DNA of 53,317 nucleotides, taken from NCBI GenBank assembly GCA_964395875.1, contig CAYNCS010000002.1, positions 1 through 53,317 on the forward strand, written 5' to 3'. The stretch comes from an uncultured Caulobacteraceae bacterium. Its GTDB lineage: Bacteria > Pseudomonadota > Alphaproteobacteria > Caulobacterales > Aquidulcibacteraceae. Both the position numbers and the translations under genes were made by a program. Below, piece after piece: positions 610 to 49,765 of this stretch. Numbering within the stretch: the first letter of the stretch is position 1; the number at the start of each line of letters is the position of its first letter. Under the pieces are notes generated by a model. It ran no database searches. It was not told where the DNA came from and saw nothing but the letters and a program-made list of their open reading frames with translations.

Positions 610-612
610 GTC

Positions 613-1080: not shown

Positions 1081-1964
1081 CGCAGGACTCCAATTTCGAG
1101 CTACAGCCGCAAGCGGTGTTCGCCGAGGGTGAATTCGATTTCACCCCCGACGATTTTCGCGCGATCGCGAACACGCTGCACAAGGAAACCGGAATTTTCA
1201 TGCCGGAATCCAAGTCGACGCTCGTTTATTCGCGTCTGACGAAGCGGTTACGCAAGCTCGGCTTTGCATCCTTCAAGCAATACCGCAAATTTCTCGCGTC
1301 CCCCGAAGGGTCCGAGGAACGCATCGCCATGATGTCGGCCCTGACGACGAACCTCACCAAATTCTATCGCGAACCGCATCACTTCGATTTGCTGCGCCGG
1401 CAAGTGCTTGAGCCGCGCGCCGCGGAAGTGCGCGGCGGAGCTCCGTTGCGAATTTGGTCTGCTGCTTGTTCGACCGGCGAGGAGGCGTATTCCATCGCGC
1501 TCACTGTGCTGCAGGTCTTCCCTGACGCGCTGGATCTCGACGTCAAAATTCTTGCGACCGACATCGATCCTGTCGTGGTGCGCAGGGCCAGCGAAGGCCG
1601 CTATGCCGAGAGCTCCGTTGAGCCCATTCCCTCCGCGCTCCTGGAGCGGTGGTTTGAAGTGGACGGCGCGCGTGGGCAGCGCACTTACGCCGCTACGCCG
1701 GAGATGCGTTCGCTGATCTCATTCAAAGAACTGAACCTGATTGGTTCGTGGCCGATGAAGGGGAGGTTCGACGCGATCTATTGCCGCAATTGCGTGATCT
1801 ATTTCAATGACGAGACGCAAGCCGCGCTGTGGCCTCGCTTCGCCGCCGCTCTCAAGCCGAGCGGGCGGCTTTATATCGGGCATTCGGAACGCGTCAGCGA
1901 TCCAGGCTTCGAAAGCGACGGGTTGACCGCCTACCGCTTGAAAGCACAGAGAGCCGCGGCATGA
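1077..1964 (+). CDS. cheR: Chemotaxis protein methyltransferase CheR
   Basis: GTG start overlaps the cheW stop (GTGA). SAM-methyltransferase/CheR motifs [38 protein letters not shown]. Confidence 0.9.
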
Positions 1965-2995
1965 AGAAAACACGTGTACTGATCATAGACGACTCGGCCA
2001 CGATGCGTAAGGTGATCCGCACCTGCCTGTCGCAAGACCCTGAAATCGAAGTGTGCGGCGAAGCGGAAGATCCACTCGTTGCACGCGACGCCATTAAGGC
2101 GCTCAATCCAGACGTTCTCACGCTGGACGTTGAAATGCCGCGCATGAACGGTCTCGAGTTTCTCGAAAAGATCATGCGTCTGCGGCCGATGCCGGTGATC
2201 ATGGTTTCGACCTTGACCCAGCAAGGCGCCGACGTGACGCTGGCGGCGCTTGAAATGGGCGCGTTCGATTGCGTCGGAAAGCCTTCGCACTTCGCATCGG
2301 CTGAGGCGTTCACGGAATTGCCGGCCAAGGTGAGAGCTGCGGCGAGATCGCGCGTCAGAACGTCGGCGGACCGATTGCCGGCGGCGGCGCCAGCATTGTT
2401 CAAACCCAACGGCAAGCTGCTTGCGATCGGCTCCTCGACCGGCGGCGTTGAAGCCCTGGTGAACATCCTGACGCATTTTCCTGCCAATTGTCCGCCGACG
2501 GTCATCACCCAGCATATGCCGCCTACTTTCACGACCAGCTTCGCTGCGCGCCTGAACAGAATATGCGCGCCTGCGGTGGCGGAGGCGACCGAGGGCGCCG
2601 TGTTGGCGCCGGGGCACATCTACATTGCCCCAGGTGGAGACGCGCACCTCGAAGTGACAGGTTCAAAAACCCTGCGCTGCCGCCTGGTGTCGTCGCCTCC
2701 GGTGAACGGGCACTGCCCATCCGTCGACGTATTGTTTCGCTCCGTCGCGCAATGCGCGGGGGCGGAGGCCGTGGGCGTGATTTTGACGGGCATGGGCCGG
2801 GACGGCGCCGCGGGTTTGCTCGAAATGCGCAAAAAAGGCGCGCGCTCGATTGGGCAAGACGAGTCCTCTTGCGTTGTCTATGGTATGCCCAAGGCAGCGC
2901 AGGAAATTGGCGCAGTCGAGCGTCAATTGCATTTAAACAAGATTCCTGGCGCCGTGCTGAGCTTGTGTTCGGCTGAGACGCGGGAGGTTGCATAA
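1961..2995 (+). CDS. cheB: Chemotaxis response regulator protein-glutamate methylesterase CheB
   Basis: The ATG at 1961 overlaps the cheR stop (ATGA). N-terminal receiver ([25 protein letters not shown]) plus methylesterase domain ([19 protein letters not shown]). The ORF-track start at 1829 lies inside cheR and is rejected. Confidence 0.9.
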
Positions 2996-3384
2996 TGCCG
3001 GCTGCATCTGCTCTCAAAGTCTTGTTGGTTGACGATCAATTGTCCATGCGCGCCCTCGCGCGGGCGGCGCTGCAACAGATTGGCGTCGTGGACATATCGG
3101 ACGCCAGCGACGGCGAAGAAGCCTTCAAAGCACTGGTGCAGCGTCCCGTGCATCTTGTGATTTCTGACTTCAATATGCCGAAGCTGGACGGCCTCGGTCT
3201 GCTGCGCGCCATTCGCGCCCACGAACCTATTCGAGGGACGGCGTTCATCATGCTCACAGGTCGCGCCGACAAGGAGCTGGTGCAGCGCGCTATGCAATTC
3301 GGCGTGAACAATTACATCGTGAAGCCGTTCACCGCCGCGCAGCTTAAATCAAAAATCGAAGATGTGTTCGGAGCGTTGACATGA
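2995..3384 (+). CDS. cheY: Single-domain chemotaxis response regulator CheY
   Basis: 129-aa receiver domain (VLLVDDQLSMR, VISDFNMPKLDG, IVKPF). Its start overlaps the cheB stop. Confidence 0.9.
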   Translation: MPAASALKVLLVDDQLSMRALARAALQQIGVVDISDASDGEEAFKALVQRPVHLVISDFNMPKLDGLGLLRAIRAHEPIRGTAFIMLTGRADKELVQRAMQFGVNNYIVKPFTAAQLKSKIEDVFGALT

Positions 3385-3944
3385 CGGCCGCCGCCAACGC
3401 CGCCGAAAGATTGCAGCATGTGATTCAGGGCGAATTTGCCGTCACGGACGATCCGTCGATCGTCCTCACTGCGATCCTGGGATCATGCGTGGCCTGCTGC
3501 CTGCACGATCCTGCGCTGCGCATCGGCGGCATGAATCACTTTTTGTTGCCGGGCGATGAATCATCCAAGGACGACGGGTTGCGCTACGGCGTCAATTCGA
3601 TGGAATTGTTGATCAACGGCCTCTTGCGGCGCGGCGCGCGGCGTGAGCGCTTGGAAGCCAAACTCTTCGGCGGCGCCCGCGTTTTAGCCGGATTGTCCGA
3701 CATCGGCGCCCAAAATGCAGCCTTTGCACGGCGGTTTCTTAAGGAAGAAGGCATACCTTGCATTGGTGAAAGTCTCGGAGGCGACCGCGCCCGGCGCGTT
3801 CGCTTTTCCCCGACGTCCGGGGCTGCGCGTCAATTGTTGCTAGAAAAAGTCAACCAAAGCGCGCTGGCTGCGGAAATGCCGCGCCGGAAGGCGCCGGCGT
3901 CGACCCCGGAGCCCGAAGGCTCCGGCGACTTGGATTTGTTCTAA
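3381..3944 (+). CDS. cheD: Chemoreceptor glutamine deamidase CheD
   Basis: 187 aa with CheD-type motifs (LGSCVACCLHD, GGMNHFLLPG, KLFGGA). ATGA overlap with cheY. Confidence 0.85.
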   Translation: MTAAANAAERLQHVIQGEFAVTDDPSIVLTAILGSCVACCLHDPALRIGGMNHFLLPGDESSKDDGLRYGVNSMELLINGLLRRGARRERLEAKLFGGARVLAGLSDIGAQNAAFARRFLKEEGIPCIGESLGGDRARRVRFSPTSGAARQLLLEKVNQSALAAEMPRRKAPASTPEPEGSGDLDLF

Positions 3945-3981
3945 AAGAAGAGGGCAGGACTTTACCCCCTGTAACGCTCAC

Positions 3982-4350
3982 ATGGCCACTGGCGCAAATA
4001 CGGCCGTAGACGTGGCGGCCGTCATGGATGGCCTCGCGAAGGAGATGCATGTTCTCACTTTGCAGGCGCTGAATCTCGAAAGCTCCCTGACCGGGCTTTC
4101 GTTGCGGGAGTGCGAGCCGGAACTCGTCCACGATCTGCAGCTGCTCGATCTTCTGCTGCAGCACATGGGTGAGCTGCGCAATTTCATGTCCATCCTGGCC
4201 CACGGTATTCATTCCGAGCAGACGCTTTGCCTCGACCGCGCGCTGGACGCCGTGCGGCTGCATGCAATTCAGGGCCGTCTTGCGGAAGCGCTTGGCCGGG
4301 CCGTGTCGCACACCCAAGCCGCAGATACCGGCGACCTTGAGATGTTGTGA
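3982..4350 (+). CDS. Small helical hypothetical protein in the post-cheD slot of the che operon
   Basis: 122-aa Leu-rich ORF, co-directional, 37 nt after cheD. Rhizobial che operons carry a small poorly characterised gene at this position (from memory: orf10/cheT). No motif recognised. Confidence 0.5.
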   Translation: MATGANTAVDVAAVMDGLAKEMHVLTLQALNLESSLTGLSLRECEPELVHDLQLLDLLLQHMGELRNFMSILAHGIHSEQTLCLDRALDAVRLHAIQGRLAEALGRAVSHTQAADTGDLEML

Positions 4351-4359
4351 GCCGTCGCG

Positions 4360-4962
4360 ATGAAGCCCGTCGACGCCAACTCAAAGTTTAATCTCTCCAG
4401 CGCAGTCGTCATGGTGGTCGACCGCTCGACGCATTCGTCTGATGTGATCGTTCAGATTTTATCCGGATTTGGCGTGCATAAGATACTGCGCTGCCAGACG
4501 GCGAAAAGGGCGATGGAAATTTTCTCCGTCAACGCCGTGGACTTGATCTTAATCGATCCGGAGCTAGAGGACGAAGATGGTCTTGAGTTCATCCGCGACA
4601 TCCGGCGCTCAAAGTCGGAAAGCCGCTTCGTGCCGATCATCTTGATCAGCGGCCATGCCAAGATTTCGAGCATCAAGCGCGCGCGCGATTGCGGGGCGAA
4701 CTTCTTCATCGCCAAACCGCTCACGCCGGCCGTGGTGCTTCAGCGCATCCACTGGGTGGCGTCGGATAAGCGCCAGTTTATCGATGTGGCGGACGGGTCC
4801 TATGCCGGGCCAGACCGCCGCTTCAAGTTTGAAGGTCCGCCTCCCGGTTCGGAGGGCCGGCGTGAAACCGATCTGCCGGTGGAGCTGGGCGATCAGACCA
4901 GCGCCAACCTCTCGCAAAACGAACTCAACACCATGTTCAAGCCGCAGAAGATCTCGATATGA
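4360..4962 (+). CDS. Receiver-domain response regulator with an Arg-rich C-terminal extension
   Basis: 200 aa. Receiver motifs are present (VMVVDRS, DLILIDPELEDEDG, ILISGH, FIAKPL), followed by a ~70-aa tail (GPDRRFKFEGPPPGSEGRRETD...). No DNA-binding domain. Confidence 0.8.
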   Translation: MKPVDANSKFNLSSAVVMVVDRSTHSSDVIVQILSGFGVHKILRCQTAKRAMEIFSVNAVDLILIDPELEDEDGLEFIRDIRRSKSESRFVPIILISGHAKISSIKRARDCGANFFIAKPLTPAVVLQRIHWVASDKRQFIDVADGSYAGPDRRFKFEGPPPGSEGRRETDLPVELGDQTSANLSQNELNTMFKPQKISI

Positions 4963-5471
4963 CGGTTGAAAACGCGAATAAACCCAAATCCAAGGCTGCC
5001 TTTTACCAGCCCGAGCCGCGCATCAAGACGATGGTGAATCGGCGTGACGGCATGCTCGTCAGCGACGCCGTCAAGAAGGCCGAGGCCAACGTGCAGGCCT
5101 ACAAGGAAACGGGCGTCGCAAGCATGGACGTCAAGATCGGCGAACTGGCCGAAATTTGCGGACGCATGCGCGGGGGCATCACGGCGGCCGACGAACGCAA
5201 GGCCTATCTGCTTTCGAATGACATTTTCGACGTCGCCGGCATGTTCGGCGAACCGGAGCTTTCAGAGGCGGCGTACAGCTTGTGTGAGCTGATCGGCAAT
5301 CGCGCGGAAGATAAGGCGTTGTCGTGGGACGCCGTCAACGTGCATGTTTCGACTATGCGTATTCTACGTCAGTCCGCCGACAATGCTGATCCAGCAACGC
5401 GGCAGGCCGTGCTCGCTGGTTTGCGTAAGGTCACCGCGCGGATGTTGGCTGAGACAGGCGCCGGGGAATAA
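4959..5471 (+). CDS. Hypothetical helical protein, possibly a His-less Hpt-like domain
   Basis: 170-aa ORF whose ATG overlaps the stop of the preceding receiver gene (ATGA). Contains NDIFDVAGMFGE, which resembles the CheA-P1/Hpt signature HxxKGxAGxFG. Confidence 0.55.
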   Translation: MTVENANKPKSKAAFYQPEPRIKTMVNRRDGMLVSDAVKKAEANVQAYKETGVASMDVKIGELAEICGRMRGGITAADERKAYLLSNDIFDVAGMFGEPELSEAAYSLCELIGNRAEDKALSWDAVNVHVSTMRILRQSADNADPATRQAVLAGLRKVTARMLAETGAGE

Positions 5472-5614
5472 AAAACCCGATGCGCACGTTAGACTGCCGC
5501 CCCGGTTCTTTGCCGGCTCGCGGGCGCCTTTAACGTCTTGAAGCAATCCACCGCGACAAAGTTGAGCGCGGTCACACCGACCAGCACAACCAGAAACGCA
5601 AGCCTGCAAAGAAC

Positions 5615-38564: not shown

Positions 38565-40958
38565 ATGCCGGTGGGGAAAGGAAGACTGAGCGCCATCGGC
38601 CACAAGGCGGCCACGGCTTTTTATTGGCTTCTGGCGGCCGCCGTGTTCGGAAGCGGCGCATTGCTCGGCGGATTGGGCGCGAAACTCGCTGCCGCCGGCG
38701 GCAGCCTGTTTTATGCCTTGTCCGGCGTCGTCCTGATCGCGTGCGGCGTTCAATTGATGCGAAAGCGCGCATCGGCGACGCATCTGGCGATCCTCAATTT
38801 TGCGATGACTTGGGCATGGGCGCTCTGGGAGGTGGGGCTGAACGGCTGGGCCCTTCTGCCGCGCGTCAATCTTGTTTGCATTCTCACTCCGCTGATTTTT
38901 CTAAGCGCCATCCAGAGCCGGCTGTACGAGGACTGGCGCAATGCCGCCGCCGTCCGGATGCGCAAGGTCTTTCCGGCGGCCTCCGCAACCTTCGTGGCGA
39001 TCGTGATTGCGGCGGTGGCGCTTCTGGGATGGCGCGGTGCGCAGGGCGTGCGGCCGGTTGCTGAAATCCAGAAAGCGGCGCCGATCCAGCAACGCACGGA
39101 CTGGCCATATTTTGGGCAGGACCCCGGTGGGACGAAGTTTTCCTCGCTCCGCGAGATCGATCGGACAAACGCGGGTCAGCTCCGCCAAATCTGGGAACAC
39201 GTCGAACCCCGCCCGACAGGCGCGGGCGAAACTGTTGCGCGCAAGGATGAAGCGACGCCAATTCAGGCGGATGGGAAACTGTTCGTGTGCCGGCCGGACA
39301 ACGTCATTCTGGCGCTGGACGCGGAAGACGGGCGCCTGGTCTGGCGTTACGAGCCGCACACGGACCTGACCGGCGTCAAAAGCGCGGTCTGCCGGGGCGT
39401 GGCGTATTGGGAATCGCCGTCAAAGACCGGCGCCTGCGCGAAGCGCATTCTCACCGCCACGGTGGACGCGCGTCTGATCGCGCTCGACGCTGATGATGGA
39501 AAACCGTGCGCGGATTTCGGCGAAGGCGGAGCGGTCTCGCTCAAGGCCGGCCTGGGCGCGTTTGATCCCGGCCAATATTACGTCACGTCGCCGCCCGCGG
39601 TCACGCATGGCGTCGCAATCGTCGGCGGTCTGGTTCAGGACAACGTCGCCAGAAAACTGCCGTCCGGCGTGGTCCGGGCTTTTGACGCGGGCACGGGAAA
39701 GCTGATCTGGGCCTGGGACATGGGGCGTGCGGGGAAATCTCGGGCGCCGCTGGCCCCGGACGAAATCTTCACGCCCGGCACGCCAAACGCCTGGTCGATC
39801 CTCACTGTCGATGAAAGCCTAGGATTGGTGTTTCTGCCGACAGGAAATGAAACGCCCGATTTTGTTGGAACGGGCCGGCTGGAAGCGTCGGAAAAATATT
39901 CCAGCTCGATCGTCGCGCTTGATGCAAAGACCGGGGACGTGCGCTGGTCGTTCCAGTTCGTGCACCACGACCTTTGGGATTATGACGCGTCGGCGCCGCC
40001 GGCGCTGTTCGACATGCCGGGCGCCAATGGCCCGATCCCTGCGCTCGCCGCCATCGGCAAGCACGGCGTCTTTTTTGTTCTCGATCGCAGAACGGGCGTG
40101 GCCGTTTCCAGCGTGAAGGAGCAGCCGGCGCCGCAGACCGACGTTCCCGGCGAATGGTCCGCGGCGACGCAACCGGACTCGCCGGACATGCCCAAGCTTG
40201 CAGGGGCGCCCCTGCGCGAACGCGACATGTGGGGCATCAGCCCCTTCGATCAATTATGGTGCCGGTTGGAATTCCGGAAGCTGCGGTATGACGGCGCGTT
40301 CACGCCGCCGTCGCTGCGCGGCTCGATTCAATATCCGGGCCTCGCCGGCGGCGCCGATTGGGGCGGCGTGGCCATTGACGGCGAGCGGAACCTGCTTTTC
40401 GCACCATCCTTCAATATGGCGTCCGTCGTGCAGCTCCTGCCGCGCGACGCCGCGGCGAAAGGCGCGAAATTCTCGGACGAGCAGGCCGGCACGCCTTTTC
40501 TGGCGAATGTGAACTGGTTCATCACGCGGCTGGGCGTGCCATGCCAGCAGCCGCCTTACGGTATGCTGAATGCGATCGATCTGCGCACGAAGACGCTGGC
40601 CTGGAGCATTCCACTCGGCACGGCGGAGGAACTCGGGCCGCGTGGGATCGCCTCGCATCTGCCCTTCACCATCGGCGCCGCGCCCATGATCGGCGGCCCC
40701 ATCGCGACCGCCGGCGACGTCGTCTTTATCGGCGCGACGGGAGACAGGCGGCTGCGGGCGATCGACAGCCTGACGGGACGCGTTCTGTGGTCGCAGAAAC
40801 TGCCGCAGGGCAATCAGGCCACCCCGATCACCTATCGGGCGCCGCGCTCTGGCCGGCAGATGGTCGTAATGGTCTCCGGCTCTTACGGCCGGCTAAACGA
40901 CACGGCGATCCTGCCGACCCATATCATCGCCTATGCTTTGCCGGAGAAGACGCGATGA
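38565..40958 (+). CDS. Membrane-bound PQQ-dependent dehydrogenase (glucose/quinate/shikimate dehydrogenase family)
   Basis: 797 aa. Five N-terminal TM segments, then a quinoprotein beta-propeller (WPYFGQDPGGTKFS, repeated W-containing propeller motifs, DLWDYD). Confidence 0.9.
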   Translation: MPVGKGRLSAIGHKAATAFYWLLAAAVFGSGALLGGLGAKLAAAGGSLFYALSGVVLIACGVQLMRKRASATHLAILNFAMTWAWALWEVGLNGWALLPRVNLVCILTPLIFLSAIQSRLYEDWRNAAAVRMRKVFPAASATFVAIVIAAVALLGWRGAQGVRPVAEIQKAAPIQQRTDWPYFGQDPGGTKFSSLREIDRTNAGQLRQIWEHVEPRPTGAGETVARKDEATPIQADGKLFVCRPDNVILALDAEDGRLVWRYEPHTDLTGVKSAVCRGVAYWESPSKTGACAKRILTATVDARLIALDADDGKPCADFGEGGAVSLKAGLGAFDPGQYYVTSPPAVTHGVAIVGGLVQDNVARKLPSGVVRAFDAGTGKLIWAWDMGRAGKSRAPLAPDEIFTPGTPNAWSILTVDESLGLVFLPTGNETPDFVGTGRLEASEKYSSSIVALDAKTGDVRWSFQFVHHDLWDYDASAPPALFDMPGANGPIPALAAIGKHGVFFVLDRRTGVAVSSVKEQPAPQTDVPGEWSAATQPDSPDMPKLAGAPLRERDMWGISPFDQLWCRLEFRKLRYDGAFTPPSLRGSIQYPGLAGGADWGGVAIDGERNLLFAPSFNMASVVQLLPRDAAAKGAKFSDEQAGTPFLANVNWFITRLGVPCQQPPYGMLNAIDLRTKTLAWSIPLGTAEELGPRGIASHLPFTIGAAPMIGGPIATAGDVVFIGATGDRRLRAIDSLTGRVLWSQKLPQGNQATPITYRAPRSGRQMVVMVSGSYGRLNDTAILPTHIIAYALPEKTR

Positions 40959-41077
40959 CGAAACAGGCGTCATGGACGGCAAATAGCTGGAATCAGGCGA
41001 AAGCGGATGACGAACGCCGCCGCGGCGTGATTGTGAACGGAGAGAAGAATACGGAGCTTCACGCATGGCGCGGTTGA
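40955..41077 (+). CDS. Possible 40-codon linker ORF (MTKQASWTANSWNQAKADDERRRGVIVNGEKNTELHAWRG)
   Basis: Its ATG overlaps the dehydrogenase stop (ATGA at 40955-40958) and its stop lies 13 nt inside the next gene. No homology evidence; it could be fortuitous. Confidence 0.2.
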   Translation: MTKQASWTANSWNQAKADDERRRGVIVNGEKNTELHAWRG

Positions 41078-41859
41078 GCGTCTTCGCCAAAGGCAATGTC
41101 GATGTGCACGATTCCCTGCATTCGTGCGTCATTGGCGGCCAATTGCACTGGAACGGGATCAACGACATCCTGCGCAAGCGGCATCCAGGCACGCTCATCC
41201 GCCTGAAGCATGAAACCTTCGTCCGGTCGGACGCGCTGCTCGCGGCTGACGGCCAGGTTCCGGCGGAGCTGGCGAACCGGGATCTGCCTTTGGGGTCCTA
41301 TCCGGCGCCCATGCAATTCAGCACGGCGCTCTTCGACTTCAAGGCCGACGTCTATGTGCTGTCGATCATGCCCGACGTCGCGACGTGTCCTCTGAAACAC
41401 AAACAGACCGGCTTCATGTTCTATCCGAACGACGTGACGGCATGGCCGGCGGCCGACCGCGAATGGCTGCGGAGCGAGTTCGAATCCTTGCCGCTGATGG
41501 ATGTGCAGACCTCGATCGAAAACATCGAGCGCATCATCAACAAAATCCGCGAGACTTCCGAGGCGCCGATCCTGATCTACAATATGTCGCCGATCGTGCC
41601 GGGGCCGATCGTGCATTGTCTGGCCGGGCTTGGTGAAACTTTTGCAACGCGCATCCGGCGGTTCAATCTTGCGCTGGCGGAATTGTCCGAACGAACGGGG
41701 ATTTCCATCGTGGACGTGGATGAGATTCTCGCGCGGGCCGGGGCGGATTCGCTCAAGGTGGACGCGATGCACCTGGCGCCCGAGGCCTATCGGCTCATCG
41801 CCGAGGAAGTCGTGCGCGTGCTGGAAGACCTGTACATTCTGGAACCACCGGCGGATTGA
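41065..41859 (+). CDS. SGNH-like hypothetical protein, paralogue A
   Basis: 264 aa with high GC3 in this frame. C-terminal block RIRRFNLALAELSERTGISIVDVDEILARAGADSLKVDAMHLAPEAYRLIAEEV (SGNH block-V-like DxxH). No signal peptide. The opposite-strand ORF 41059..41883 is Arg/His-rich shadow. Confidence 0.6.
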   Translation: MARLSVFAKGNVDVHDSLHSCVIGGQLHWNGINDILRKRHPGTLIRLKHETFVRSDALLAADGQVPAELANRDLPLGSYPAPMQFSTALFDFKADVYVLSIMPDVATCPLKHKQTGFMFYPNDVTAWPAADREWLRSEFESLPLMDVQTSIENIERIINKIRETSEAPILIYNMSPIVPGPIVHCLAGLGETFATRIRRFNLALAELSERTGISIVDVDEILARAGADSLKVDAMHLAPEAYRLIAEEVVRVLEDLYILEPPAD

Positions 41860-41875
41860 GGCGCGGAAGCGGACC

Positions 41876-43132
41876 ATGAGCACCTACACGCGCGCGCCCG
41901 GCTACAAACCCAAAACCGATGAGCGGTTTCGCGCCGCGCCAGAGGCGGAGATCGTCGATCTGTTGTTGCTGGTCAGCGGCGTGTTCGACTTGGAGGCCAA
42001 GGGCCGCGCCGCCGCTGAGGAAACCGTGAAAGCGGCGATCGAGCGCTGGATCGGCGCGGGCCTGGGTTACCGCGCGGCGCCGGGCGGCGGACGCCTGTTC
42101 GATCCGGCGGAAGTGATCAACTTCATGAAATGGCGCGGCGTCGCGGGCGAGGATTCCTATTGGCGCGAGCATTTCGTTCAGACGCACCGCGATTTTGTCG
42201 ACGAGTTCAAAGGCCGTGCGCGGACCCCGCGCCGCTTCGACTTTACATTCCGGCGGGCCTTCGATTTGTCGGGGTTTGAGGAGGGCGCGAACCTGCGCCT
42301 GCGCATGCCGGTTCCGCTGACCGAGCCCTATTTGCGTGAACTGCGCAGCGATTTCGCGGTCCCGGAGGAATGGCGTGACGCCGCGGCCGTCCGGGACAAT
42401 TATGTCGAGCTGCGCTTAAAGAAGGGCGCTGAGCCAAGCCTGACGCTCGGCGCCGAATACGCGTTCACCGCCGGGTTCCAGTCGCCGGACGCTTTGACCG
42501 ATCGCGAGCGCGAAACCTATCTGAAAAAGTCCGAAGGCTTCATCCGCGTCACGCAGCGCATCGAGGCGCTGGCGGCGGAACTCGACGCGGGCGACCCGCG
42601 CGCTACTCTGGCGGCCATCTGGGATTACATGATGAATGCGCTGTATTCCGGCATGGTGCGGTATGCGCATATCCCGCCGGAGGCGCCGGGCGATTTTGTA
42701 CTCGAACACGGCTGGTACGATTGCCAATTGGGCGCGGCGCTGTTCGCATCGCTCTGCCGGGCGCGGGGTGTTCCGGCGCGGCTGATCAATGGCCATCTCC
42801 TGTATCGAACGCAGCCGATCAGCCATTATTGGGCGGAAGCGTGGATCGACGGCGAGGGCTGGCTGCCCTTCGACGTCATTGCCTGGGATTTGTCGATGGC
42901 GGGCGAGGATCTGGAGTGGCGCGATCTATTCGCCGGCGCGATCGACTACCGTTTTGTGACGCAGTGCTTTCCAACGGCTTTTACCGGTCCAATGAGCGTC
43001 CGGTTTCCGCCGGCCTGGCATATGCTGCAAAAACGGGCGGGCGCGGGCGTGGAAATCACCTATCAGGACGTCGACACGGGGGCGATCCTGTATCAGGACT
43101 ATGCGGAAGCGCGGGATCGCGGCGCAGGTTAG
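41876..43132 (+). CDS. Transglutaminase-like (papain-fold Cys-His-Asp) protein
   Basis: Start at ATG 41876; the ORF-track start at 41630 lies inside the previous gene. Core GWYDCQLGAALFASLCRARGVPARLINGH...HYWAEAWIDGEGWLPFD carries the Cys, His and Asp in canonical spacing. Confidence 0.75.
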   Translation: MSTYTRAPGYKPKTDERFRAAPEAEIVDLLLLVSGVFDLEAKGRAAAEETVKAAIERWIGAGLGYRAAPGGGRLFDPAEVINFMKWRGVAGEDSYWREHFVQTHRDFVDEFKGRARTPRRFDFTFRRAFDLSGFEEGANLRLRMPVPLTEPYLRELRSDFAVPEEWRDAAAVRDNYVELRLKKGAEPSLTLGAEYAFTAGFQSPDALTDRERETYLKKSEGFIRVTQRIEALAAELDAGDPRATLAAIWDYMMNALYSGMVRYAHIPPEAPGDFVLEHGWYDCQLGAALFASLCRARGVPARLINGHLLYRTQPISHYWAEAWIDGEGWLPFDVIAWDLSMAGEDLEWRDLFAGAIDYRFVTQCFPTAFTGPMSVRFPPAWHMLQKRAGAGVEITYQDVDTGAILYQDYAEARDRGAG

Positions 43133-43313
43133 ACGAGCCGTTTTTCCGCACCACACACGCAACAAGAGATTCTATTCGTATACGTCGAGACAAGAGACGC
43201 TGAATTGTGCAGCAGGCGCTCAACCGGCCCGTCATGCGCACACAATATTGAATCCGTCTCGGTCGCGAGCTAGAGCACTGATACAGAATTGCCGCGCGGG
43301 CTTGGGGTTTTGC

Positions 43314-43682
43314 ATGATCTATGAGTTCAAGTTGCCGTCGATCGTGGCCCAGATGACGGGCGCCACCATCGAATGTCTGCACGCCAAGCCAGGCGAAGCC
43401 TTGAAGATGGGCAGCAAATTGTTCGACGTCAGCGTCGACCTCTCGAGCGCCTTCGCCCAGGAATGCCCGCCGATATCATTCTTTAGGGTTGTGATGCGCG
43501 AGCCGGGCTATCTCAGGAAAATCGAACTCACGCCCGGCCAGTTCTGCAAGTTGGATGAAGTGATGGCGGTGTTCAGCACCACGCCCGACGAAGACTTGAG
43601 TGCGCCCGCCGCGCGTCCGGTCCGCACCACCGTCGCCGGCATCGTGCACCATGACGGCATGTATACGGGGAGCGTCCGCTAA
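43314..43682 (+). CDS. Lipoyl/biotinyl-domain-like protein lacking the modifiable lysine
   Basis: 122 aa from ATG 43314. MIYEFKLPSIVAQMTGATIECLHAKPGEALKMGSKLFDVSVDLSSAF aligns with the lipoyl protein on the other strand (MIYKLLVPAAVPGVEEIRVMEWHGEPGAEFQAGDLIVELETHKAVV), but the E-T-x-K motif is replaced. Both share the ...AVFSTTPDED / AIFSDTPDEP ending. Confidence 0.55.
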   Translation: MIYEFKLPSIVAQMTGATIECLHAKPGEALKMGSKLFDVSVDLSSAFAQECPPISFFRVVMREPGYLRKIELTPGQFCKLDEVMAVFSTTPDEDLSAPAARPVRTTVAGIVHHDGMYTGSVR

Positions 43683-45046
43683 TGGGCCTCGACATTCGCC
43701 TCGGACCATTGCGGGCGGATGGCTTCAACATCATGCGTTCGGGCGTGCGCTGGCTGTGCGAGCCGGGCCAGTATTGCCGTCCGAACCAGATTTTCGCGTA
43801 TTGCAATCTGACGCTGGAGCCGACGGGCGGCCGCCTCGCCGGTCCGTCGCCGTTCGCCGAAGAGCTGGAGCTGCAGATCGGCATCGCATCGCGCGTCGGC
43901 GGCCGGGTCTTTGCGAACGCCGAAGCCGCGCGCGGCGGCTATCTCAGCATCCGCTCCGTCGATCTGTGGGACCCCGACTACGTCGTTGCGACCTTCGAGC
44001 CCGAGGACGGCGCGGGCATTTCTGACGCTTCTTCGCGCGCACGTCTCCTGGCGCTGGCCGGCCGGCGCATGACCGATCTGGCCGATACGCATTCCGGCCT
44101 TTTGCCCGGATGGCATGCACGCAGCCGCGGCTGGTGGTGCGATGAAGGCGAAACGCCGCTGACATTGCTGGCGCTTGGCGTGTGCGACGTCACCGGCGTG
44201 ATGCTGGGCGAGGAATGCGCGTTCTTCGAAATGTTCGAAAGCGTGCCGCAAGCCGCGCAAATGGTCGTGGTGCCTGATCATCCTCTGGCGCCGGCTGTGC
44301 CGGTTTTGCTGGATCAATTGCGCCGCACGCCCGCGCAATTCGATGCGCTGTCCGAAGACCTGCAGAGTTTCTTTGCGCGCCCGAACGTCAAGCCCACGCC
44401 GAACGATCTTTCGTTTGCGGGCATCATGCTGTCGATGATGCAGCGCAATCCGATCCGCGAGAATTACAGTGTCTTCACGCCGCGCGGGTTGTTGAGTCTC
44501 GGCCCGGCGGACGCGGTTTTGCTGTCGCTCGCCGTCGAGCCGACCTCGATCCTGCGGCACAAGAAGCTCGGCTGTCACGTGCATATCATGCGCCACCACC
44601 AGACGGCGGCGGGTCCGGCCATGCGCGCATGGCTGTCGGAAGCGTTCGAGCCGGTGAAGCGGTCGATCAGCGACATCAAGCGCGACTACGAAACCATGAT
44701 CGACTCCATCGCGCGCACCACAGGCGGCCGGGTCATCGTGCTCAACCGCATGTCGACGTCCGGCCACGAAGACATTTCCAACTACATGGCGTTCGACGCG
44801 CCGATGAGCGACACGCTCACCTACATCTCCGCCAAGGAAACCAATCTGATGCTGGAAGACATCGCGGCGGAGCGCGAAATCTACATCATCGACGTTGACG
44901 CAATCGCGGCGGACGTCGGCGGGGCGGAGCACCTGCCCGACGGCATCCATCAGAGCGGCGAAATGCAGACCCTGTTGCGGCAGGAATTGCGCGCGGCGCT
45001 CGACCAGATCGGCCAGAGCGCGGCGCGGACCGCAGCGGTCAGATAA
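43682..45046 (+). CDS. Two-part hypothetical protein: N-terminal Lys-less lipoyl-like segment plus C-terminal SGNH-like domain (paralogue C)
   Basis: Its ATG shares 1 nt with the preceding stop (TAATG). N-terminus GVRWLCEPGQYCRPNQIFAYCNLTLEP fits the lipoyl-domain pattern but without the Lys. C-terminus ISAKETNLMLEDIAAEREIYIIDVDAIAADVGGAEHLPDGIHQSGEMQTLLRQEL. The opposite-strand ORF 43679..44950 is shadow. Confidence 0.6.
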   Translation: MGLDIRLGPLRADGFNIMRSGVRWLCEPGQYCRPNQIFAYCNLTLEPTGGRLAGPSPFAEELELQIGIASRVGGRVFANAEAARGGYLSIRSVDLWDPDYVVATFEPEDGAGISDASSRARLLALAGRRMTDLADTHSGLLPGWHARSRGWWCDEGETPLTLLALGVCDVTGVMLGEECAFFEMFESVPQAAQMVVVPDHPLAPAVPVLLDQLRRTPAQFDALSEDLQSFFARPNVKPTPNDLSFAGIMLSMMQRNPIRENYSVFTPRGLLSLGPADAVLLSLAVEPTSILRHKKLGCHVHIMRHHQTAAGPAMRAWLSEAFEPVKRSISDIKRDYETMIDSIARTTGGRVIVLNRMSTSGHEDISNYMAFDAPMSDTLTYISAKETNLMLEDIAAEREIYIIDVDAIAADVGGAEHLPDGIHQSGEMQTLLRQELRAALDQIGQSAARTAAVR

Positions 45047-45341
45047 CGTCGAATTCGATTTTCAGATCGGAAAAGTCGTCGCCTTCGGGCAGCGGCTCGT
45101 CGGGCGTGTCGCTGAAAATCGCCAACACCAGACCGATGGCGCACCAATCGCCCGGCTCGGCGTTCACCTTGCGCAGAAAGCCGGGTTGCCCGGCGCGCGC
45201 CTCGACAACCGCTTTGTGCGTCTCCAGTTCGACGATCAGGTCCCCCGCCTGAAACTCGGCGCCCGGCTCGCCATGCCATTCCATGACGCGAATTTCTTCG
45301 ACGCCGGGCACAGCCGCGGGCACCAGCAATTTATAGATCAT
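45039..45341 (-). CDS. Free-standing lipoyl-attachment (biotinyl/lipoyl carrier) domain protein
   Basis: About 100 aa. GDLIVELETHKAVVEARAGQPGFL matches the lipoyl-lysine hairpin (E-T-x-K-A). ATG 45341 is preceded by GGAG (the ORF-track GTG is at 45350). It lies 25-35 nt downstream of the E1-beta gene. Confidence 0.75.
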   Translation of the reverse strand: MIYKLLVPAAVPGVEEIRVMEWHGEPGAEFQAGDLIVELETHKAVVEARAGQPGFLRKVNAEPGDWCAIGLVLAIFSDTPDEPLPEGDDFSDLKIEFDVI

Positions 45342-45375
45342 TCCCCACACTCCATCTGGACGTTTCTTCGCAACG

Positions 45376-46362
45376 TCACCGCGACACTAATTCCCGGATC
45401 GCCTGCGCCACGCGTTGCGGATCGGGCAGGCAGGCGGGTTCCAGGACAGGATTCGAAGACACCGGTGCGGGCACGGCGCCGATACGCACCCAGGGGCGCG
45501 GGCCAATGCGCTCAAACACACGGGCCATAACCTCCACGCCGACGCCGGTCGTGGTCTGGCCTTCCTCAAGCGTCGCCAGGCGGCCGGTCTTTTCAACCGA
45601 ACGCACCACCGTGCCCACATCCATCGGGGCGAGGCTGCGCAAATCGACGACTTCGCAAGATATGCCTTCCTCGGCGAGCAGCTCCGCCGCCTGCAGCGCC
45701 ACGCGCGTGATGAAGCCGTGCACGCTGATCGTGACGTCGGCCCCCTCGCGCCGCACGATCGCTTCGCCGAACGGAATTGCAAATTCCTCCACCGGCACTT
45801 CACCCGGCGTCGGGAACAGCTTTTTGTGGTCGATGAACACAACGGGACCGTCGCAACGCAGCGCCGTCTTCATCAGGCCATAGGCGTCGGCGGGCGTGGA
45901 CGGCGCGACGACCTTCAGGCCCGGCACGCTCATCAGCCAGGCTTCAATGCATTGGGAATGCGCTACGCCCTGGCCCGCGGCGCCCGCCGTCGTCTTCACG
46001 ACCAGCGGCGCCGTCAATCGGCCATTGGTCTTGTAGCGGAGCTTCGCGGCGTAATTGATCAGCGGATCGAAGCCGAGCATCAGGAAGTCCATATAGGTGA
46101 TGCTCACCAGCGGGCGATAGCCGAAGGCCGCCGCGCCCGCGCCAATCCCGATGCTGGCGTTTTCCGAAACCGGCGTATCGCGCACGCGCTCCGGCCCGAA
46201 TTCGGTGAAGATTCCATCGAACTCCCGATAGGAGCCGCCGAACGAGCCGACGTCCTGACCCATCAGCAGGATGCGCGGATCGGCGCGCATTTCCTCGCGC
46301 ACGGCGCGCGCGATCGCTTCGCGGAAAAAAATCTTCTTTGTGGCGGGCGGATTACTCGACAT
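45376..46362 (-). CDS. 2-oxoacid (pyruvate/acetoin/branched-chain) dehydrogenase E1 component, beta subunit
   Basis: Start at ATG 46362 (MSSNPPATKKIFFREAI...). Transketolase-like pyrimidine-binding and C-terminal domains (LLMGQDVGSFGG, RVRDTPVSENASIG, GVAHSQC, LKVVAPSTPADAYGL). Confidence 0.9.
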   Translation of the reverse strand: MSSNPPATKKIFFREAIARAVREEMRADPRILLMGQDVGSFGGSYREFDGIFTEFGPERVRDTPVSENASIGIGAGAAAFGYRPLVSITYMDFLMLGFDPLINYAAKLRYKTNGRLTAPLVVKTTAGAAGQGVAHSQCIEAWLMSVPGLKVVAPSTPADAYGLMKTALRCDGPVVFIDHKKLFPTPGEVPVEEFAIPFGEAIVRREGADVTISVHGFITRVALQAAELLAEEGISCEVVDLRSLAPMDVGTVVRSVEKTGRLATLEEGQTTTGVGVEVMARVFERIGPRPWVRIGAVPAPVSSNPVLEPACLPDPQRVAQAIRELVSR

Positions 46363-47284
46363 GGTCGAGCACTCCGGCCGGATCTGGGTACGGCGAGGCG
46401 TCGGCGAAGGCGAGCGCGGCCGCTGCGCCATCCGCCGCTTCCTTCTCCAGCGCCGCGAAGTCATCGACGCTCAGGTTCAGGCGCGCCGCGATCTTCTTGA
46501 TGGGGCAGAATTCCCGCAACGCCGCCAGTTCAGCACGCGAGCGTGTTTCGCGCGCGGTGGTGGAGTGCGAGCGCAACCGGATGGAGATGCATTCGACGAA
46601 AGCCGGCCCGGCGCCGTTTCGCACGTGATCGACCGCCTCCTTCATCGCCGCTGCGACCGCTTCCACGTCGAGGCCGTCCACGGTCTTTGACAACAATCCG
46701 AAGGTTGCGCCTAGGTCGGAGAGTTTTTTCGGCGCCAGCGCGTCTGTGCGCGCCACCGACACCGACAATTGGTTGTTGTTGCAGACGAACAGCAGCGGCA
46801 GCTTCCAGTTCGCCGCCATGTTCAGGGTTTCATGCAGCGCGCCCGCGCCGCAGGCGCCGTCGCCGAACATGATGACGACCACGCCGCCGTCTTTTTCCAT
46901 CTGCTTGGCGAGCGCGATGCCCGCCGCGATGCTGATATTGCCGCCGACCACGGCGTGTGCGCCGAAGAAGCCAGCGGACGGTTCCGAGAAATGCCCGCGT
47001 CCCGCGCGGCCTCCATTAAAGCCCGCAACCTTGCCCAGCAATTCCGCCATCATGCCGCCGGGATCGACGCCGCGCGCCAGAGCCGGCCCGATCGAACGGC
47101 CGCCCGTCAGCAATTGATCGCGTTCATCCAGAACGGAGGCCAGGCCGACCGCGACCGCTTCTTCGCCCGAGGACAGCAACTGGAATCCGTGATCCTTGCG
47201 TTCGGACAGCGCCGTCTCAAACGCGCGAATGCGCATCATGGCGCGCAGGGATTCATGCAGGTCAATTACCGTGGACATGCTCAT
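46352..47284 (-). CDS. 2-oxoacid dehydrogenase E1 component, alpha subunit (TPP-binding)
   Basis: TPP motif GDGACGAGALHETLNMAANWKLPLLFVCNNN. 310 aa. Overlaps the beta-subunit gene by 11 nt. Confidence 0.9.
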   Translation of the reverse strand: MSMSTVIDLHESLRAMMRIRAFETALSERKDHGFQLLSSGEEAVAVGLASVLDERDQLLTGGRSIGPALARGVDPGGMMAELLGKVAGFNGGRAGRGHFSEPSAGFFGAHAVVGGNISIAAGIALAKQMEKDGGVVVIMFGDGACGAGALHETLNMAANWKLPLLFVCNNNQLSVSVARTDALAPKKLSDLGATFGLLSKTVDGLDVEAVAAAMKEAVDHVRNGAGPAFVECISIRLRSHSTTARETRSRAELAALREFCPIKKIAARLNLSVDDFAALEKEAADGAAAALAFADASPYPDPAGVLDHVE

Positions 47285-48162
47285 CTCTGCGGCTGACGCT
47301 GACGGAAGAGGCGGGACACGCCCTGCGCCAATAGAATCACGCTTTCTTTGGCGCCGCGATTGCGGATCGCCTGGTTGAGGCGATGAAAGGCTTCCTGCGG
47401 ACCGATGCGGCCGTTCAGCACCTGTCGCACCAGCCAGCCCACGTGATTTTCCTGCACGGTGTCGGTGACCGTGGCCGCCATCTGCCGGCGCCGGCCCTGG
47501 CCCATGGCCACGACGTCGGACAATTTGATGTCGGTCGCCAGACCGGCGGCGGGTTTGTGCGCCTCAAGAAATGCGCGCGCGGAATCCTGGATTTCAAAGG
47601 AGGCGAGGGCGTCCAGGGCGTTGGCGGCGACGCAGGTCGCGATCGCGTTGGCGGCGTGATCCACGACGACGGCGCCGCCGAGGCGATAATCGGTCTGCAG
47701 CCGGCGGCCGCCGATGTCCGCGAGTATCCGGTCAAGGTCGATCACGAAGCAGCCATACTCACGCGACATTTCCGCCGCCAGCAAGTTCAACCGGCGGATG
47801 CGCAGCAATCGCCGCTGGGCGTCTTCCTCCGAGGGCGGAACATGGCGCAGGATCGTGCAAAGGAAGACCGGATCGCCCGCTCCGCTCAACGCTTCGCAGG
47901 TCTGACGCAATTGCGCTTCCGCTTCAGACCAGAGCGTATCCAGCTGATCCAGCGCCGGGATCAGCGAGACGATTGTGATCGCGCCGTCGGCGGGCGCGTC
48001 CTGAAGGGCGGCGGCCTCCGGCGCAACGCTGATTTCGGCGCGCCAATCTTCGGTTGAGGCTTGCTTCAGCGCATCACACAGCAGGAGTCCCGCGCGGCCG
48101 ACGATCGCCTGCTCCTGGGGCGGGACGGCGGCGCGAATCCTGATCGTGTGCGCTTCGCTCAT
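47281..48162 (-). CDS. SGNH-like hypothetical protein, paralogue B
   Basis: 293 aa. LLRIRRLNLLAAEMSREYGCFVIDLDRILADIGGRRLQTD is collinear with paralogues A and C. 4-nt overlaps with both neighbouring genes. Confidence 0.6.
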   Translation of the reverse strand: MSEAHTIRIRAAVPPQEQAIVGRAGLLLCDALKQASTEDWRAEISVAPEAAALQDAPADGAITIVSLIPALDQLDTLWSEAEAQLRQTCEALSGAGDPVFLCTILRHVPPSEEDAQRRLLRIRRLNLLAAEMSREYGCFVIDLDRILADIGGRRLQTDYRLGGAVVVDHAANAIATCVAANALDALASFEIQDSARAFLEAHKPAAGLATDIKLSDVVAMGQGRRRQMAATVTDTVQENHVGWLVRQVLNGRIGPQEAFHRLNQAIRNRGAKESVILLAQGVSRLFRQRQPQR

Positions 48163-49178
48163 GCGCTCTCCAGCGCGTAGCGCATGTGGGCTGCGCGCAC
48201 GGCGTCCCGTCCGAGGATGCCCTTGCAGCGTTCAGCTGCGGCGGCGAGGTCGGCCAGGGAATGCAGCCGCGCCGCTTCGGGCAGGGTCGTCGATTCGCTG
48301 AGGCTGTCCCACAGGACCGCCATCAAGGCGACTTCGGGCAGCGGGTGTTCGGCGTAAAAGATGTTTTCCCACTCCGGCTCGTGCAGCGGGTCGCGCCAGC
48401 CGCTTCGGTGAGTCATGTGGTACGTGCGGCCGGTGCAGCCGGCCATGCGCAGACCATTCGCACACAGACGAAGCGCCAATTCACGATGCTCGTTGATCGT
48501 GATGGCGGGATGAAAGCCGCCGCTGGACAGAAAGGCCTCGCGCGACAGCGACTGATTGGAGCCGGACGCCGCGCACCACAGCACGGGATTGTCCGGCTCG
48601 GACATCAGCGCGTCCATTTCCATCTCGAACAATTTGCGCGGACCGAAGCCGGGATAGATGCCGCCCTGCCCGCGCTTGTCGACTGCGGGAAAGTCGGTGC
48701 GGATCTGTTCCCGAGTGACGCGGTTCCGCGCCAGTTCGTTTGCGCTCATGCGGGCGACGCGGGCTTCCTCGCCCGGCATCGGCGTGCCGGTTTCGGGGTC
48801 CTGGAACGACCGTGTGCAGCGCAGATGATAGGTTTCGCCCCGCACCACAAGATGGGGCGCGCGCCGGTGCTGCTCCATATGGCGCTCGACAAGGTCCGGT
48901 GCGGCCAGCGTGTCGCCGTCGAGGAAGATGACGATCTCGCCCGACGCCAGATTGGCCCCGGCGTTCGCGGCGCCGGAGCGGCCGGCGGGTTTGTCATGAT
49001 GGATCGGTGCGAGATCCATCGCGCCCTGCATTTCAGCGATGACGGCGCGCGTGTGATCGGACGAGCCGTCATTGACGACGACGACCTGCGCCGGCTCCGT
49101 CTGATGCGCGAGGGACGTCAGCGTCAGACGCAGCCGATCCGCTTCATCTTTCGATCTGATCACCACGCTGGCGCGCAT
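48159..49178 (-). CDS. Glycosyltransferase family 2
   Basis: MRASVVIRSKDEADRLRLTLTSL..., VVVVNDGSSDHT, DxD at IFLDGDTL. ATG 49178 is preceded by GGGGGAA (the ORF-track start at 49286 is TTG). Confidence 0.8.
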   Translation of the reverse strand: MRASVVIRSKDEADRLRLTLTSLAHQTEPAQVVVVNDGSSDHTRAVIAEMQGAMDLAPIHHDKPAGRSGAANAGANLASGEIVIFLDGDTLAAPDLVERHMEQHRRAPHLVVRGETYHLRCTRSFQDPETGTPMPGEEARVARMSANELARNRVTREQIRTDFPAVDKRGQGGIYPGFGPRKLFEMEMDALMSEPDNPVLWCAASGSNQSLSREAFLSSGGFHPAITINEHRELALRLCANGLRMAGCTGRTYHMTHRSGWRDPLHEPEWENIFYAEHPLPEVALMAVLWDSLSESTTLPEAARLHSLADLAAAAERCKGILGRDAVRAAHMRYALESA

Positions 49179-49689
49179 TGTTCCCCCGAACATTCTTGGA
49201 TCGAACTCTTTTAAAGCTGCGTAGGGGCAGAGATTGAACAGCGATTGCGCAAAGCGCGCCGCCAGCTGCTCACTTCCCGTCGGCAATGCTCAAGCGCGTG
49301 CGATCTCGCAAAAAAATCCATCGCCCAAGCACCCGAAAGGTTAATCCGTGAGCAGGGCAATGGGTAGAGCTTTCACCCAATATTCATGCAGCGATACTCG
49401 CGGTACGGGTGTACGTGACCAGAAAATTGGCGCTCTGAAAGCCAGGCGACAATTAACGGAGCGCCTGGCGGCGTTCCGCGCCTCGGATTGCATGGAATTA
49501 TTCTTGGTAGGGACGATTACCGCTGCCGGGCGCCATCACATTTGTGTGCGGGCGCTGCGGTGCGTTTCTGCATCCCGCGCCGTGGGCGGCTGACCGCATT
49601 AGGGTTGCGGCAGGATGCTCCGGCGCCTCTGCGATTGAGTGGAGGCCCTGTTGAGGCGCCGTCGTCCAATGGAGTCCGGAAAAGTGGGA

Positions 49690-49765
<76 letters not shown>

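Follow-up and report, generated by a model that had tools for sequence, protein, structure and literature searches.

We analysed a contig of 53,317 nt from an uncultured Caulobacteraceae bacterium (CAYNCS010000002.1; the whole contig is called the window here, so that every absence from the window covers about 53 kb), in which the genes for the alpha and beta subunits of a thiamine pyrophosphate (TPP)-dependent 2-oxoacid dehydrogenase E1 are followed by the gene for a small free-standing lipoyl protein, Lip100. An earlier note on this DNA had taken these genes as an E1 plus free lipoyl module. The trio is indeed real, but the module as described was incomplete, since it makes up three of the nine genes of a cassette that spans 41065-49286 (Table 1). 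The minus-strand operon encodes a family 2 glycosyltransferase (GT2), an SGNH-like protein (S293), E1 alpha, E1 beta and Lip100, while the plus-strand operon, encoding a second SGNH-like protein (SGNH264), a transglutaminase-like protein, a lipoyl-like protein (LipLike122) and a signature protein of 454 residues (U454), converges on Lip100. The genes in each operon abut or overlap: S293 overlaps each of its neighbours by 4 nt, the start of E1 beta and the stop of E1 alpha overlap by 11 nt, and the Lip100 open reading frame (ORF) starts 35 nt past E1 beta. The convergent stop codons of U454 and Lip100 overlap by 8 nt (45039-45046); no terminator-like site was found between the two operons, and a promoter and terminator scan of the cassette gave nothing exceeding chance.

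For comparison, a U454 profile was scanned against 185,579 species genomes, with one genome per species, and gave 72 loci. Together with a further Komagataeibacter copy, these form a set of 73 loci, anchored in its sampling on U454, across which the cassette genes were mapped by tblastn. Conservation is given below as the number of positions that are at least 95% conserved among the orthologues, and paralogy between cassette families was judged by hhalign profile-profile comparison.

The cassette E1 is predicted to be a catalytically complete alpha2beta2-type TPP enzyme, in agreement with the earlier note, which had regarded both subunits as intact. The domains of a heterotetrameric 2-oxoacid dehydrogenase E1 are present (PF00676 in alpha; PF02779 and PF02780 in beta), as are the catalytic residues. 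When aligned to human E1alpha, the alpha subunit retained the TPP motif (FGDGACGAG...VCNNNQ) and the active-site His, with RSHS opposite the human HGHS, and alignment of the beta subunit to four solved E1beta structures identified the cofactor-activating Glu (DTPVSE) and the His (AHSQ). E1 is also the most conserved protein of the cassette, with 96 of the 310 positions in E1 alpha (61 orthologues) and 123 of 328 in E1 beta above the conservation threshold.

The relationships of this E1 were assessed by pairwise identities and hidden Markov model scores. Identities within the cassette family were 58-97% for E1 beta and 50-96% for E1 alpha, against 35-48% to the E1s of Thermus and Pseudoroseomonas (AcoAB). 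Plasmid-borne E1 beta proteins in PLSDB were at most 45% identical to the cassette E1 beta, and this search found the cassette on no plasmid. E1 alpha is nearest to the mitochondrial/alphaproteobacterial pyruvate dehydrogenase (PDH) E1 alpha (human E1alpha, 124 bits), and E1 beta to the Thermus and archaeal proteins. The equivalog models for PDH E1 were all matched below their cut-offs: TIGR03182, the best NCBIfam model for E1 alpha, at 249.5 bits against 393.85, NF006667 at 297.6 bits for E1 beta against 321, and NF008854 at 288.2 against 454. By these measures, the cassette E1 appears as a distinct clade among the PDH/acetoin-type E1s, with a substrate that is not readable from the sequence.

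Lip100 has the features of an E2-type lipoyl domain: its PF00364 score lies above the cut-off of 22.1 bits, and Lys43, in the hairpin, aligns with the lipoyl-lysine of the human E2p domains (ETHKA versus ETDKA). It matches PF00364 and E2 models only, and is thus E2-type, not GcvH-like; its best NCBIfam match is the N-terminus of AcoC (PRK14875, E=3.6e-11). The ATG start (MIYKL...) is common to all homologues. Among 69 genome-derived sequences from 68 loci, the length was always 98-102 aa, Lys43 was present in 69 of 69 and Thr41 was likewise invariant, while the residue before Lys43 was His in 65, Tyr in 3 and Asn in 1. His in place of the usual Asp, which the earlier note had remarked on, is therefore a conserved signature of the Lip100 family and not a quirk of this copy. 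A search of 5.8 billion proteins gave 241 clusters of homologues, and the best 120 listed were nearly all about 100 aa long. When the Lip100 profile was run against 1.84 billion representatives, cassette-type proteins of 100 aa came out interleaved with multi-domain E2s, with no informative nearest clade. We read Lip100 as a true lipoyl-type domain whose lysine is invariant, the lipoylation itself being assumed, and the view that the gene encodes a genuinely stand-alone lipoyl domain was borne out by the constant length of the family and by the lack of any peripheral-subunit-binding or 2-oxoacid_dh acyltransferase domain beside it.

The absence of an E2 core and an E3 from the 53 kb, which had been claimed before, was likewise found here. 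E2 (dihydrolipoamide acyltransferase) motifs of the form DH[RK]xx[DE]G and the redox-disulfide motif of E3 (dihydrolipoamide dehydrogenase), CxxxxC, were absent in all six frames of the window. Furthermore, Pfam/NCBIfam scans of most large ORFs in the window, including every ORF long enough for E3, detected no E2 or E3 domains, and instead gave chemotaxis genes, an exopolysaccharide (EPS) locus, a pyrroloquinoline quinone (PQQ)-dependent dehydrogenase and aroA-cmk. Across the 73 loci, the motif scan gave no E3 motif and three DHRxxDG-type matches, all of them chance matches in junk frames. Lip100 itself lacks the make-up of an E2, and no E3 is encoded nearby in the window or the 73 loci. The DNA past the Lip100 stop is the conserved U454 gene on the opposite strand, and a 423-aa antisense ORF downstream of Lip100 had no family match.

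The 72 species genomes with the cassette belong to the Alpha-, Beta- and Gammaproteobacteria, Acidobacteriota (Acidobacteriaceae), Verrucomicrobiota (Methylacidiphilales) and Eremiobacterota, and the same gene set also occurs in Komagataeibacter. Most of the loci come from metagenome-assembled genomes (MAGs) of peat, bog and acid soil; cultured hosts in the 72-locus set include Gluconacetobacter, Labrys, Aureimonas, Methylocapsa and Novosphingobium. All nine genes stand in conserved order in 47 of the 73 loci, and the rest are mostly cut by contig ends. E1 was never found without Lip100 among the 73 loci, and was present in 61 of the 68 loci that have Lip100. The U454 of an Acidobacteriaceae copy is 59% identical to that of the window, compared with 35-45% for some Alphaproteobacteria; identity does not track taxonomy, which indicates horizontal movement of the cassette. 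In the window, the G+C content of the cassette (63-65%) is the same as that of the flanks, so that there is no sign of a recent insertion.

Table 1. Genes of the nine-gene cassette and further features of the window.
Feature	Position	Strand	Basis or remark
SGNH264, SGNH/GDSL-like, 264 aa (N173, D233xxH236)	41065-41859	+	PF13472 E=5e-7, 30.8 bits, just under cut-off
Transglutaminase-core (Cys-His-Asp) enzyme, 418 aa	41876-43132	+	PF01841 E=5.9e-14
LipLike122, Lip100 paralog with Cys51-Pro-Pro loop, 122 aa	43314-43682	+	BLASTP to Lip100 E=3e-14; hhalign 98.2%
U454, signature protein, 454 aa; N-terminal beta domain, Arg/Trp-rich middle, C-terminal SGNH-like domain (S282, D420xxH423)	43682-45046	+	No Pfam/NCBIfam family
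Lip100, lipoyl-domain carrier protein, 100 aa, ELETHKA	45039-45341 from ATG (45039-45350, 103 aa, from GTG)	-	PF00364 34.5 bits
E1 beta, 328 aa	45376-46362	-	PF02779 E=4.7e-38 and PF02780 E=2.4e-27
E1 alpha, TPP-binding, 310 aa	46352-47284	-	PF00676 E=1.6e-55
S293, diverged SGNH-like paralog, 293 aa	47281-48162	-	PF13472 E=3.9e-5, sub-threshold
GT2 glycosyltransferase	48159-49286	-	PF00535 E=1.1e-21
Membrane PQQ-dependent dehydrogenase	38565-40958	+	PF01011 E=2e-212; recurrent, not constant, cassette neighbour
EPS locus, 28 kb	~9595-38349		Several families (see text)
tRNA-Ala(GGC)	49690-49765	-	Between cassette and aroA-cmk region
Chemotaxis cluster	52-5471	+	Left end of contig

The remaining cassette proteins are unusual members of hydrolase, lipoyl-like and glycosyltransferase families. 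Homologues of U454 fall into 360 clusters, all of them unnamed or 'hypothetical' in public annotation; the family keeps S282, D420xxH423 and 50 other near-invariant residues, and Cys168 is invariant. An AlphaFold2 model of U454 (pLDDT 81, pTM 0.83) gave SGNH hydrolases (4h08, 4q9a) as fold matches of the C-terminal domain, with probabilities up to 1.0, all at E >1e-3, and the whole-protein fold search returned weak SGNH and esterase matches. A separate model of the first 260 residues (pLDDT 68) had lipoyl domains as its top fold matches (9a5h_B, probability 1.0; 2dnc, target TM 0.56; 1ghj, 0.58; E >1e-3). Comparison of the U454 N-terminus with lipoyl domains by hhalign was not significant in two tries, and the predicted lipoyl-like fold is therefore kept as a hint, because the sequence profiles give no support. 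U454 does not have the make-up of an AcoC-type E2: it contains no E3_binding domain, and its C-terminus is SGNH-like, not alpha/beta-hydrolase. Profile comparison identifies the C-terminal half of U454, SGNH264 and S293 as mutual paralogs, with hhalign values of 99.5% for SGNH264 and U454, 97.7% for SGNH264 and S293, and 82.8% for S293 and U454. Block I is atypical in these SGNH-like paralogs, and SGNH264 retains the N-x-S of block III and D233xxH236 of block V.

The transglutaminase-like protein scored 52.7 bits with PF01841 (cut-off 23 bits), and has the residues of a transglutaminase-like cysteine enzyme, with D282-C283 and H317-W319-E321 at least 95% conserved and the Asp of PFD at least 80%; a PDB sequence search with this protein gave no match. 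In LipLike122, the paralog of Lip100, the place of the Lys hairpin is taken by a loop that is 7 residues longer and carries an invariant Cys51-Pro-Pro, and the motif VDL(S/T)x6CPPxS is kept across 73 sequences. This pattern suggests that the invariant Cys may serve as a site of glycosylation or as a second thiol station. Outside E1, conservation is highest in the GT2, where 83 of 375 positions, including DGD, are above the threshold. The GT2 has weak matches to solved GT-A enzymes among the PDB sequences; its ORF opens at TTG 49286, and ATG 49193 or 49178 is the probable true start. No obvious signal peptide was seen at any of the nine N-termini, whose translations were read by eye, and the chemistry of the cassette is therefore probably cytoplasmic. 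An anti-phage defence role was rejected, as PADLOC matched none of the nine proteins.

The neighbourhood of the cassette is rich in genes for glycan synthesis. In the window, the cassette abuts the EPS locus and the PQQ dehydrogenase, and the EPS locus contains two Wzc-like tyrosine-kinase/chain-length proteins, a NadE-like gene, a flippase, two GT4 and two Bac_transf genes, a HAD-UbiA fusion, two GT87, a GT2-like gene, a BD-FAE esterase and several ORFs of 350-540 aa without a family. Its AMP-ligase and Asn-synthase-like amidotransferase resemble XrtA/PEP-CTERM-associated models, below the cut-off. A homologue of the PQQ dehydrogenase adjoins the cassette in about 15 of the 73 loci, above the random-neighbour expectation. 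A second GT2 of about 280 aa, which is not in the window, occurs in 32 of the 73 loci, usually beside the transglutaminase-like gene (for example at 7363-8196 of L039 and 7547-8395 of L051), and is a tenth, optional member of the cassette. Other recurrent neighbours are a HAD-UbiA fusion (12 loci) and GT87/GT-C proteins. The chemotaxis cluster at the other end of the contig (two CheW, CheR, CheB, CheD and a response regulator) is unrelated.

To our knowledge, lipoyl arms belong to a small number of well-known complexes of central metabolism, with few exceptions such as LbpA and the quinocarcin/naphthyridinomycin (Qnc/Nap) system. Acetoin dehydrogenase (AcoA/AcoB/AcoC/AcoL) likewise has a split alpha/beta TPP E1 followed by a lipoyl-bearing gene, and in AcoC the acyl transfer is carried out by a serine-hydrolase fold instead of a chloramphenicol acetyltransferase (CAT)-like E2 core, as is proposed here for the cassette. 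Indeed, a domain scan of an annotated AcoC found Biotin_lipoyl, E3_binding and Abhydrolase in one chain, and therefore a serine-hydrolase fold can replace the CAT-like core. The cassette differs from this system in that its lipoyl domain is a separate 100-aa protein, that it has no E3-binding domain and no AcoL/E3, that its hydrolase candidates are SGNH-like rather than alpha/beta-hydrolases, and that its E1, 35-46% identical to AcoA/AcoB, is found in the context of glycosyltransferases and not of catabolism.

The Qnc/Nap C2-unit system (QncN/QncL/QncM) reportedly diverts a lipoyl arm and an E1-like TPP enzyme to biosynthetic acyl delivery; the E2-type acyltransferase is said to be fused to the lipoyl domain, and the unit to be handed to an acyl carrier protein (ACP) of the nonribosomal peptide synthetase (NRPS) line. 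The cassette shares with it an E1-like enzyme and a lipoyl arm outside central metabolism. The analogy to C2-unit transfer in secondary metabolism that the earlier note drew did not hold, since no ACP, no NRPS or polyketide synthase and no E2-type acyltransferase core was found in the window or the 73 loci, and no PP-binding or condensation domain among the cassette and flanking proteins, the partners being instead the glycosyltransferase and the SGNH-like and transglutaminase-like proteins. A trio of E1 alpha, E1 beta and an 82-aa stand-alone lipoyl protein (ENDKA) is annotated on the Thermus thermophilus plasmid pAA2-2b (L074, 5030-7217), with the same three-gene architecture and the lipoyl protein directly past E1 beta. 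The two systems are unrelated at the family level, with lipoyl proteins 29% and E1s 37-48% identical; the Thermus lipoyl family is confined to Thermus (33 matches), and its neighbours are a tripartite ATP-independent periplasmic (TRAP) transporter and a helix-turn-helix regulator, not GT2, SGNH-like or transglutaminase-like genes. Because of the Thermus trio, a bare E1 with a free lipoyl protein is only a moderately unusual architecture, and what is new is the Cys-Pro-Pro paralog of the lipoyl protein and the conserved context of nine genes.

Precedents for the hydrolase-fold partners and for the free carrier can also be found outside the 2-oxoacid dehydrogenases. OctT of the mycobacterial methylglucose lipopolysaccharide pathway is a cytoplasmic SGNH-type sugar acyltransferase. 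TviD of the Vi antigen is a cytoplasmic SGNH-type O-acetyltransferase that acts beside glycosyltransferases (PMC8760489). The SGNH-like proteins of the cassette resemble these enzymes in the lack of a signal peptide, the atypical block I, the glycosyltransferase partners and, as proposed here, a thioester acyl donor; in contrast, TviD and OctT use acyl-CoA, and the similarity is weak (OctT model NF043016, E=0.0075). LbpA of sHdr sulfur oxidation is a free lipoylated carrier that works apart from both the 2-oxoacid dehydrogenases and the glycine cleavage system; its gene lies in a dedicated, hdr-associated cluster, and it is GcvH-like with its own LplA-like ligases (PMC6067878). Lip100 is similarly a free-standing lipoyl carrier in a dedicated cluster, but it is E2-type and stands next to E1, with no ligase in the cassette; Hdr and LplA domains were absent from the nine cassette proteins, and none was prominent among the recurrent neighbours.

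We propose that the cassette may be a stripped-down front end of a 2-oxoacid dehydrogenase (E1 plus lipoyl arm) that feeds non-E2 transferases. In this scheme, the general machinery of the host would lipoylate Lys43 of Lip100, and E1 would decarboxylate a small 2-oxoacid, with pyruvate as the simplest guess, and reductively acylate the lipoyl arm. This loading of Lip100 by E1 is the part that we consider probable. The acyl thioester would then be taken by a hydrolase-fold transferase, which could be a Ser-His-Asp SGNH domain (in U454 or SGNH264), the transglutaminase-like Cys-His enzyme, or both, and the acyl group would be put on a glycoside or glycoconjugate made by the cassette GT2, while a housekeeping E3 would re-oxidise the dihydrolipoyl arm. 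The transfer step is reasonable because AcoC and the cytoplasmic SGNH-type O-acetyltransferases are precedents, and the EPS/glycan neighbourhood in the window and in other genomes agrees with a glycan target. Taken as a whole, with E1 acylating Lip100 and the acyl group reaching the GT2-made glycoside by way of hydrolase-fold transferases instead of a classical E2, the scheme remains tentative, at a little under one chance in two. A more elaborate form would make the cassette a swinging-arm machine of a kind not recognised before: its E1 would load the free lipoyl protein, which would supply acyl groups to SGNH- and transglutaminase-fold transferases that decorate the glycosyltransferase product, and LipLike122 would be a second, cofactor-free thiol carrier or the glycosylated scaffold. 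This form is possible but rather doubtful.

Several observations weigh against the proposal. The SGNH assignments all lie under the Pfam cut-off, with PF13472 scores of 30.8, 24.7 and 16.9 bits for SGNH264, S293 and U454 against 32.9, and the fold matches were at E >1e-3. In S293, DxxR replaces DxxH and the catalytic His is lost, while S66, D142, D144 and R145 are conserved. Whereas the LbpA system brings its own ligases, no lipoate ligase is encoded in the cassette, so that lipoylation is assumed; nor is an E3, so that re-oxidation is assumed as well. The scheme can name its acyl donor, its acceptor and its transferase as candidates only, and it would give neither LipLike122 nor the N-terminal domain of U454 a role. 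A literature search on the cassette found no description of it. Finally, seven loci (four from Eremiobacterota, two from Novosphingobium and one from a Rhodospirillales MAG) carry Lip100 and the rest of the cassette with no E1 within 20 kb, which suggests that Lip100 can work without a dedicated E1.

The carrier is therefore the core part of the cassette and E1, as we see it, an accessory feeder, and in the E1-less cassettes Lip100 might be loaded by another E1. The residue after Lys43 is Val (ETHKV) in five of these seven loci (L051, L053, L054, L060 and L068), whereas ETHKV occurs in no E1-bearing locus and Ala is found in every E1-bearing cassette; it is possible that Val or Ala after the lipoyl-lysine marks which E1 loads the carrier. 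In L051, an Eremiobacterota locus, no substitute TPP enzyme was found within 20 kb, the neighbours being CysD/CysNC, PPK2, a peptidase and others. The CysD gene and the CysN-CysC fusion there (2917-5594), for synthesis of 3'-phosphoadenosine 5'-phosphosulfate, lie near the E1-less cassette either by coincidence or as a hint of sulfation.

Two explanations that give Lip100 no function of its own are the easiest to set aside. A housekeeping PDH E1 that uses an E2 and E3 encoded elsewhere, with Lip100 incidental, would fit the PDH-type E1s closest to E1 alpha (human E1alpha and TIGR03182, the best model), but the scores fall short of the PDH cut-offs by the margins given above, and in alphaproteobacterial housekeeping systems pdhA-pdhB-pdhC-lpd are clustered and PdhB often has its own N-terminal lipoyl domain (model PRK11892). 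Moreover, just 72 of 185,579 species genomes have the cassette with this E1 clade, and in their loci E1 always lies inside it and never without Lip100; the clade, at least 50-58% identical internally and at most 48% elsewhere, has cross-phylum identities off taxonomy that indicate horizontal transfer. As far as this contig and the 73 loci go, the doubt that this might be the ordinary housekeeping E1 has thus largely been removed, and we consider it very improbable. That a full-length E2 was frameshifted and left the Lip100 ORF as its remnant, a caveat of the earlier note, is suggested by the position of the ORF following E1 beta and nothing more, and can practically be dismissed: the 241 homologous clusters and the constant length in 68 loci, the conserved convergent gene in the downstream DNA, and the lack of an E2 motif or domain in any frame all contradict it, and this candidate was rejected.

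The other two explanations assign Lip100 a different chemistry. The cassette might carry out an acetoin-dehydrogenase-like catabolic cleavage, in which E1, Lip100 and U454, as an AcoC-like E2, would turn a 2-oxoacid or a compound like acetoin into acyl-CoA, the host E3 would recycle the arm, and the glycosyl and SGNH genes would release the substrate. The match of Lip100 to the AcoC N-terminus, the hydrolase fold of the AcoC catalytic domain, the combination of a modelled lipoyl-like fold with a hydrolase fold in U454, and the catabolic-looking setting of the Thermus plasmid trio beside a TRAP transporter speak for such a route. We nevertheless regard it as unlikely, since transporters, regulators and E3 are missing from the nine genes and not prominent among the recurrent neighbours, a cleavage pathway has no use for the constant one or two GT2s and the transglutaminase-like enzyme, the cassette is located in glycan-synthesis islands, and E1 is dispensable in seven loci. 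The last point would in turn suit a dithiol or sulfur/redox carrier, with Lip100 and LipLike122 acting like LbpA or like lipoyl-dependent peroxidase systems and E1 merely reducing the arm, because Lip100 is kept where E1 is missing. The invariant Cys of LipLike122 at the hairpin tip, together with Cys168 of U454 and Cys283 of the transglutaminase-like protein, both invariant, would also fit, and for free lipoate-binding proteins, [12 protein letters not shown] roles have been established (PMC6067878). Against this stand the presence of E1, the most conserved cassette protein, in 61 of the 68 Lip100 loci, the E2-type (PF00364) and not GcvH-like lipoyl domain, and the absence of peroxiredoxin, Hdr and thioredoxin-fold proteins among the nine by Pfam/NCBIfam, with none prominent in the recurrent flanks; we hold a redox role to be slightly less likely still than the catabolic one.

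If acyl transfer from an E1-loaded lipoyl protein to a glycoside is indeed what the cassette does, lipoate biochemistry would be extended to glycan or glycolipid tailoring without an E2 core or E3, and hydrolase-fold stand-ins for E2 would be known beyond AcoC. LipLike122, with Cys in place of Lys, offers a natural experiment on carrier design. The cassette also gives a context to several unnamed families, such as the 360 clusters of U454, which are common in peat, bog and acid-soil metagenomes, and its cultured hosts (Komagataeibacter, Gluconacetobacter, Labrys and Methylocapsa) make it testable. For acid-soil bacteria, the more elaborate form of the scheme, if true, would mean a CoA-independent route for the acylation of envelope glycans or glycolipids.

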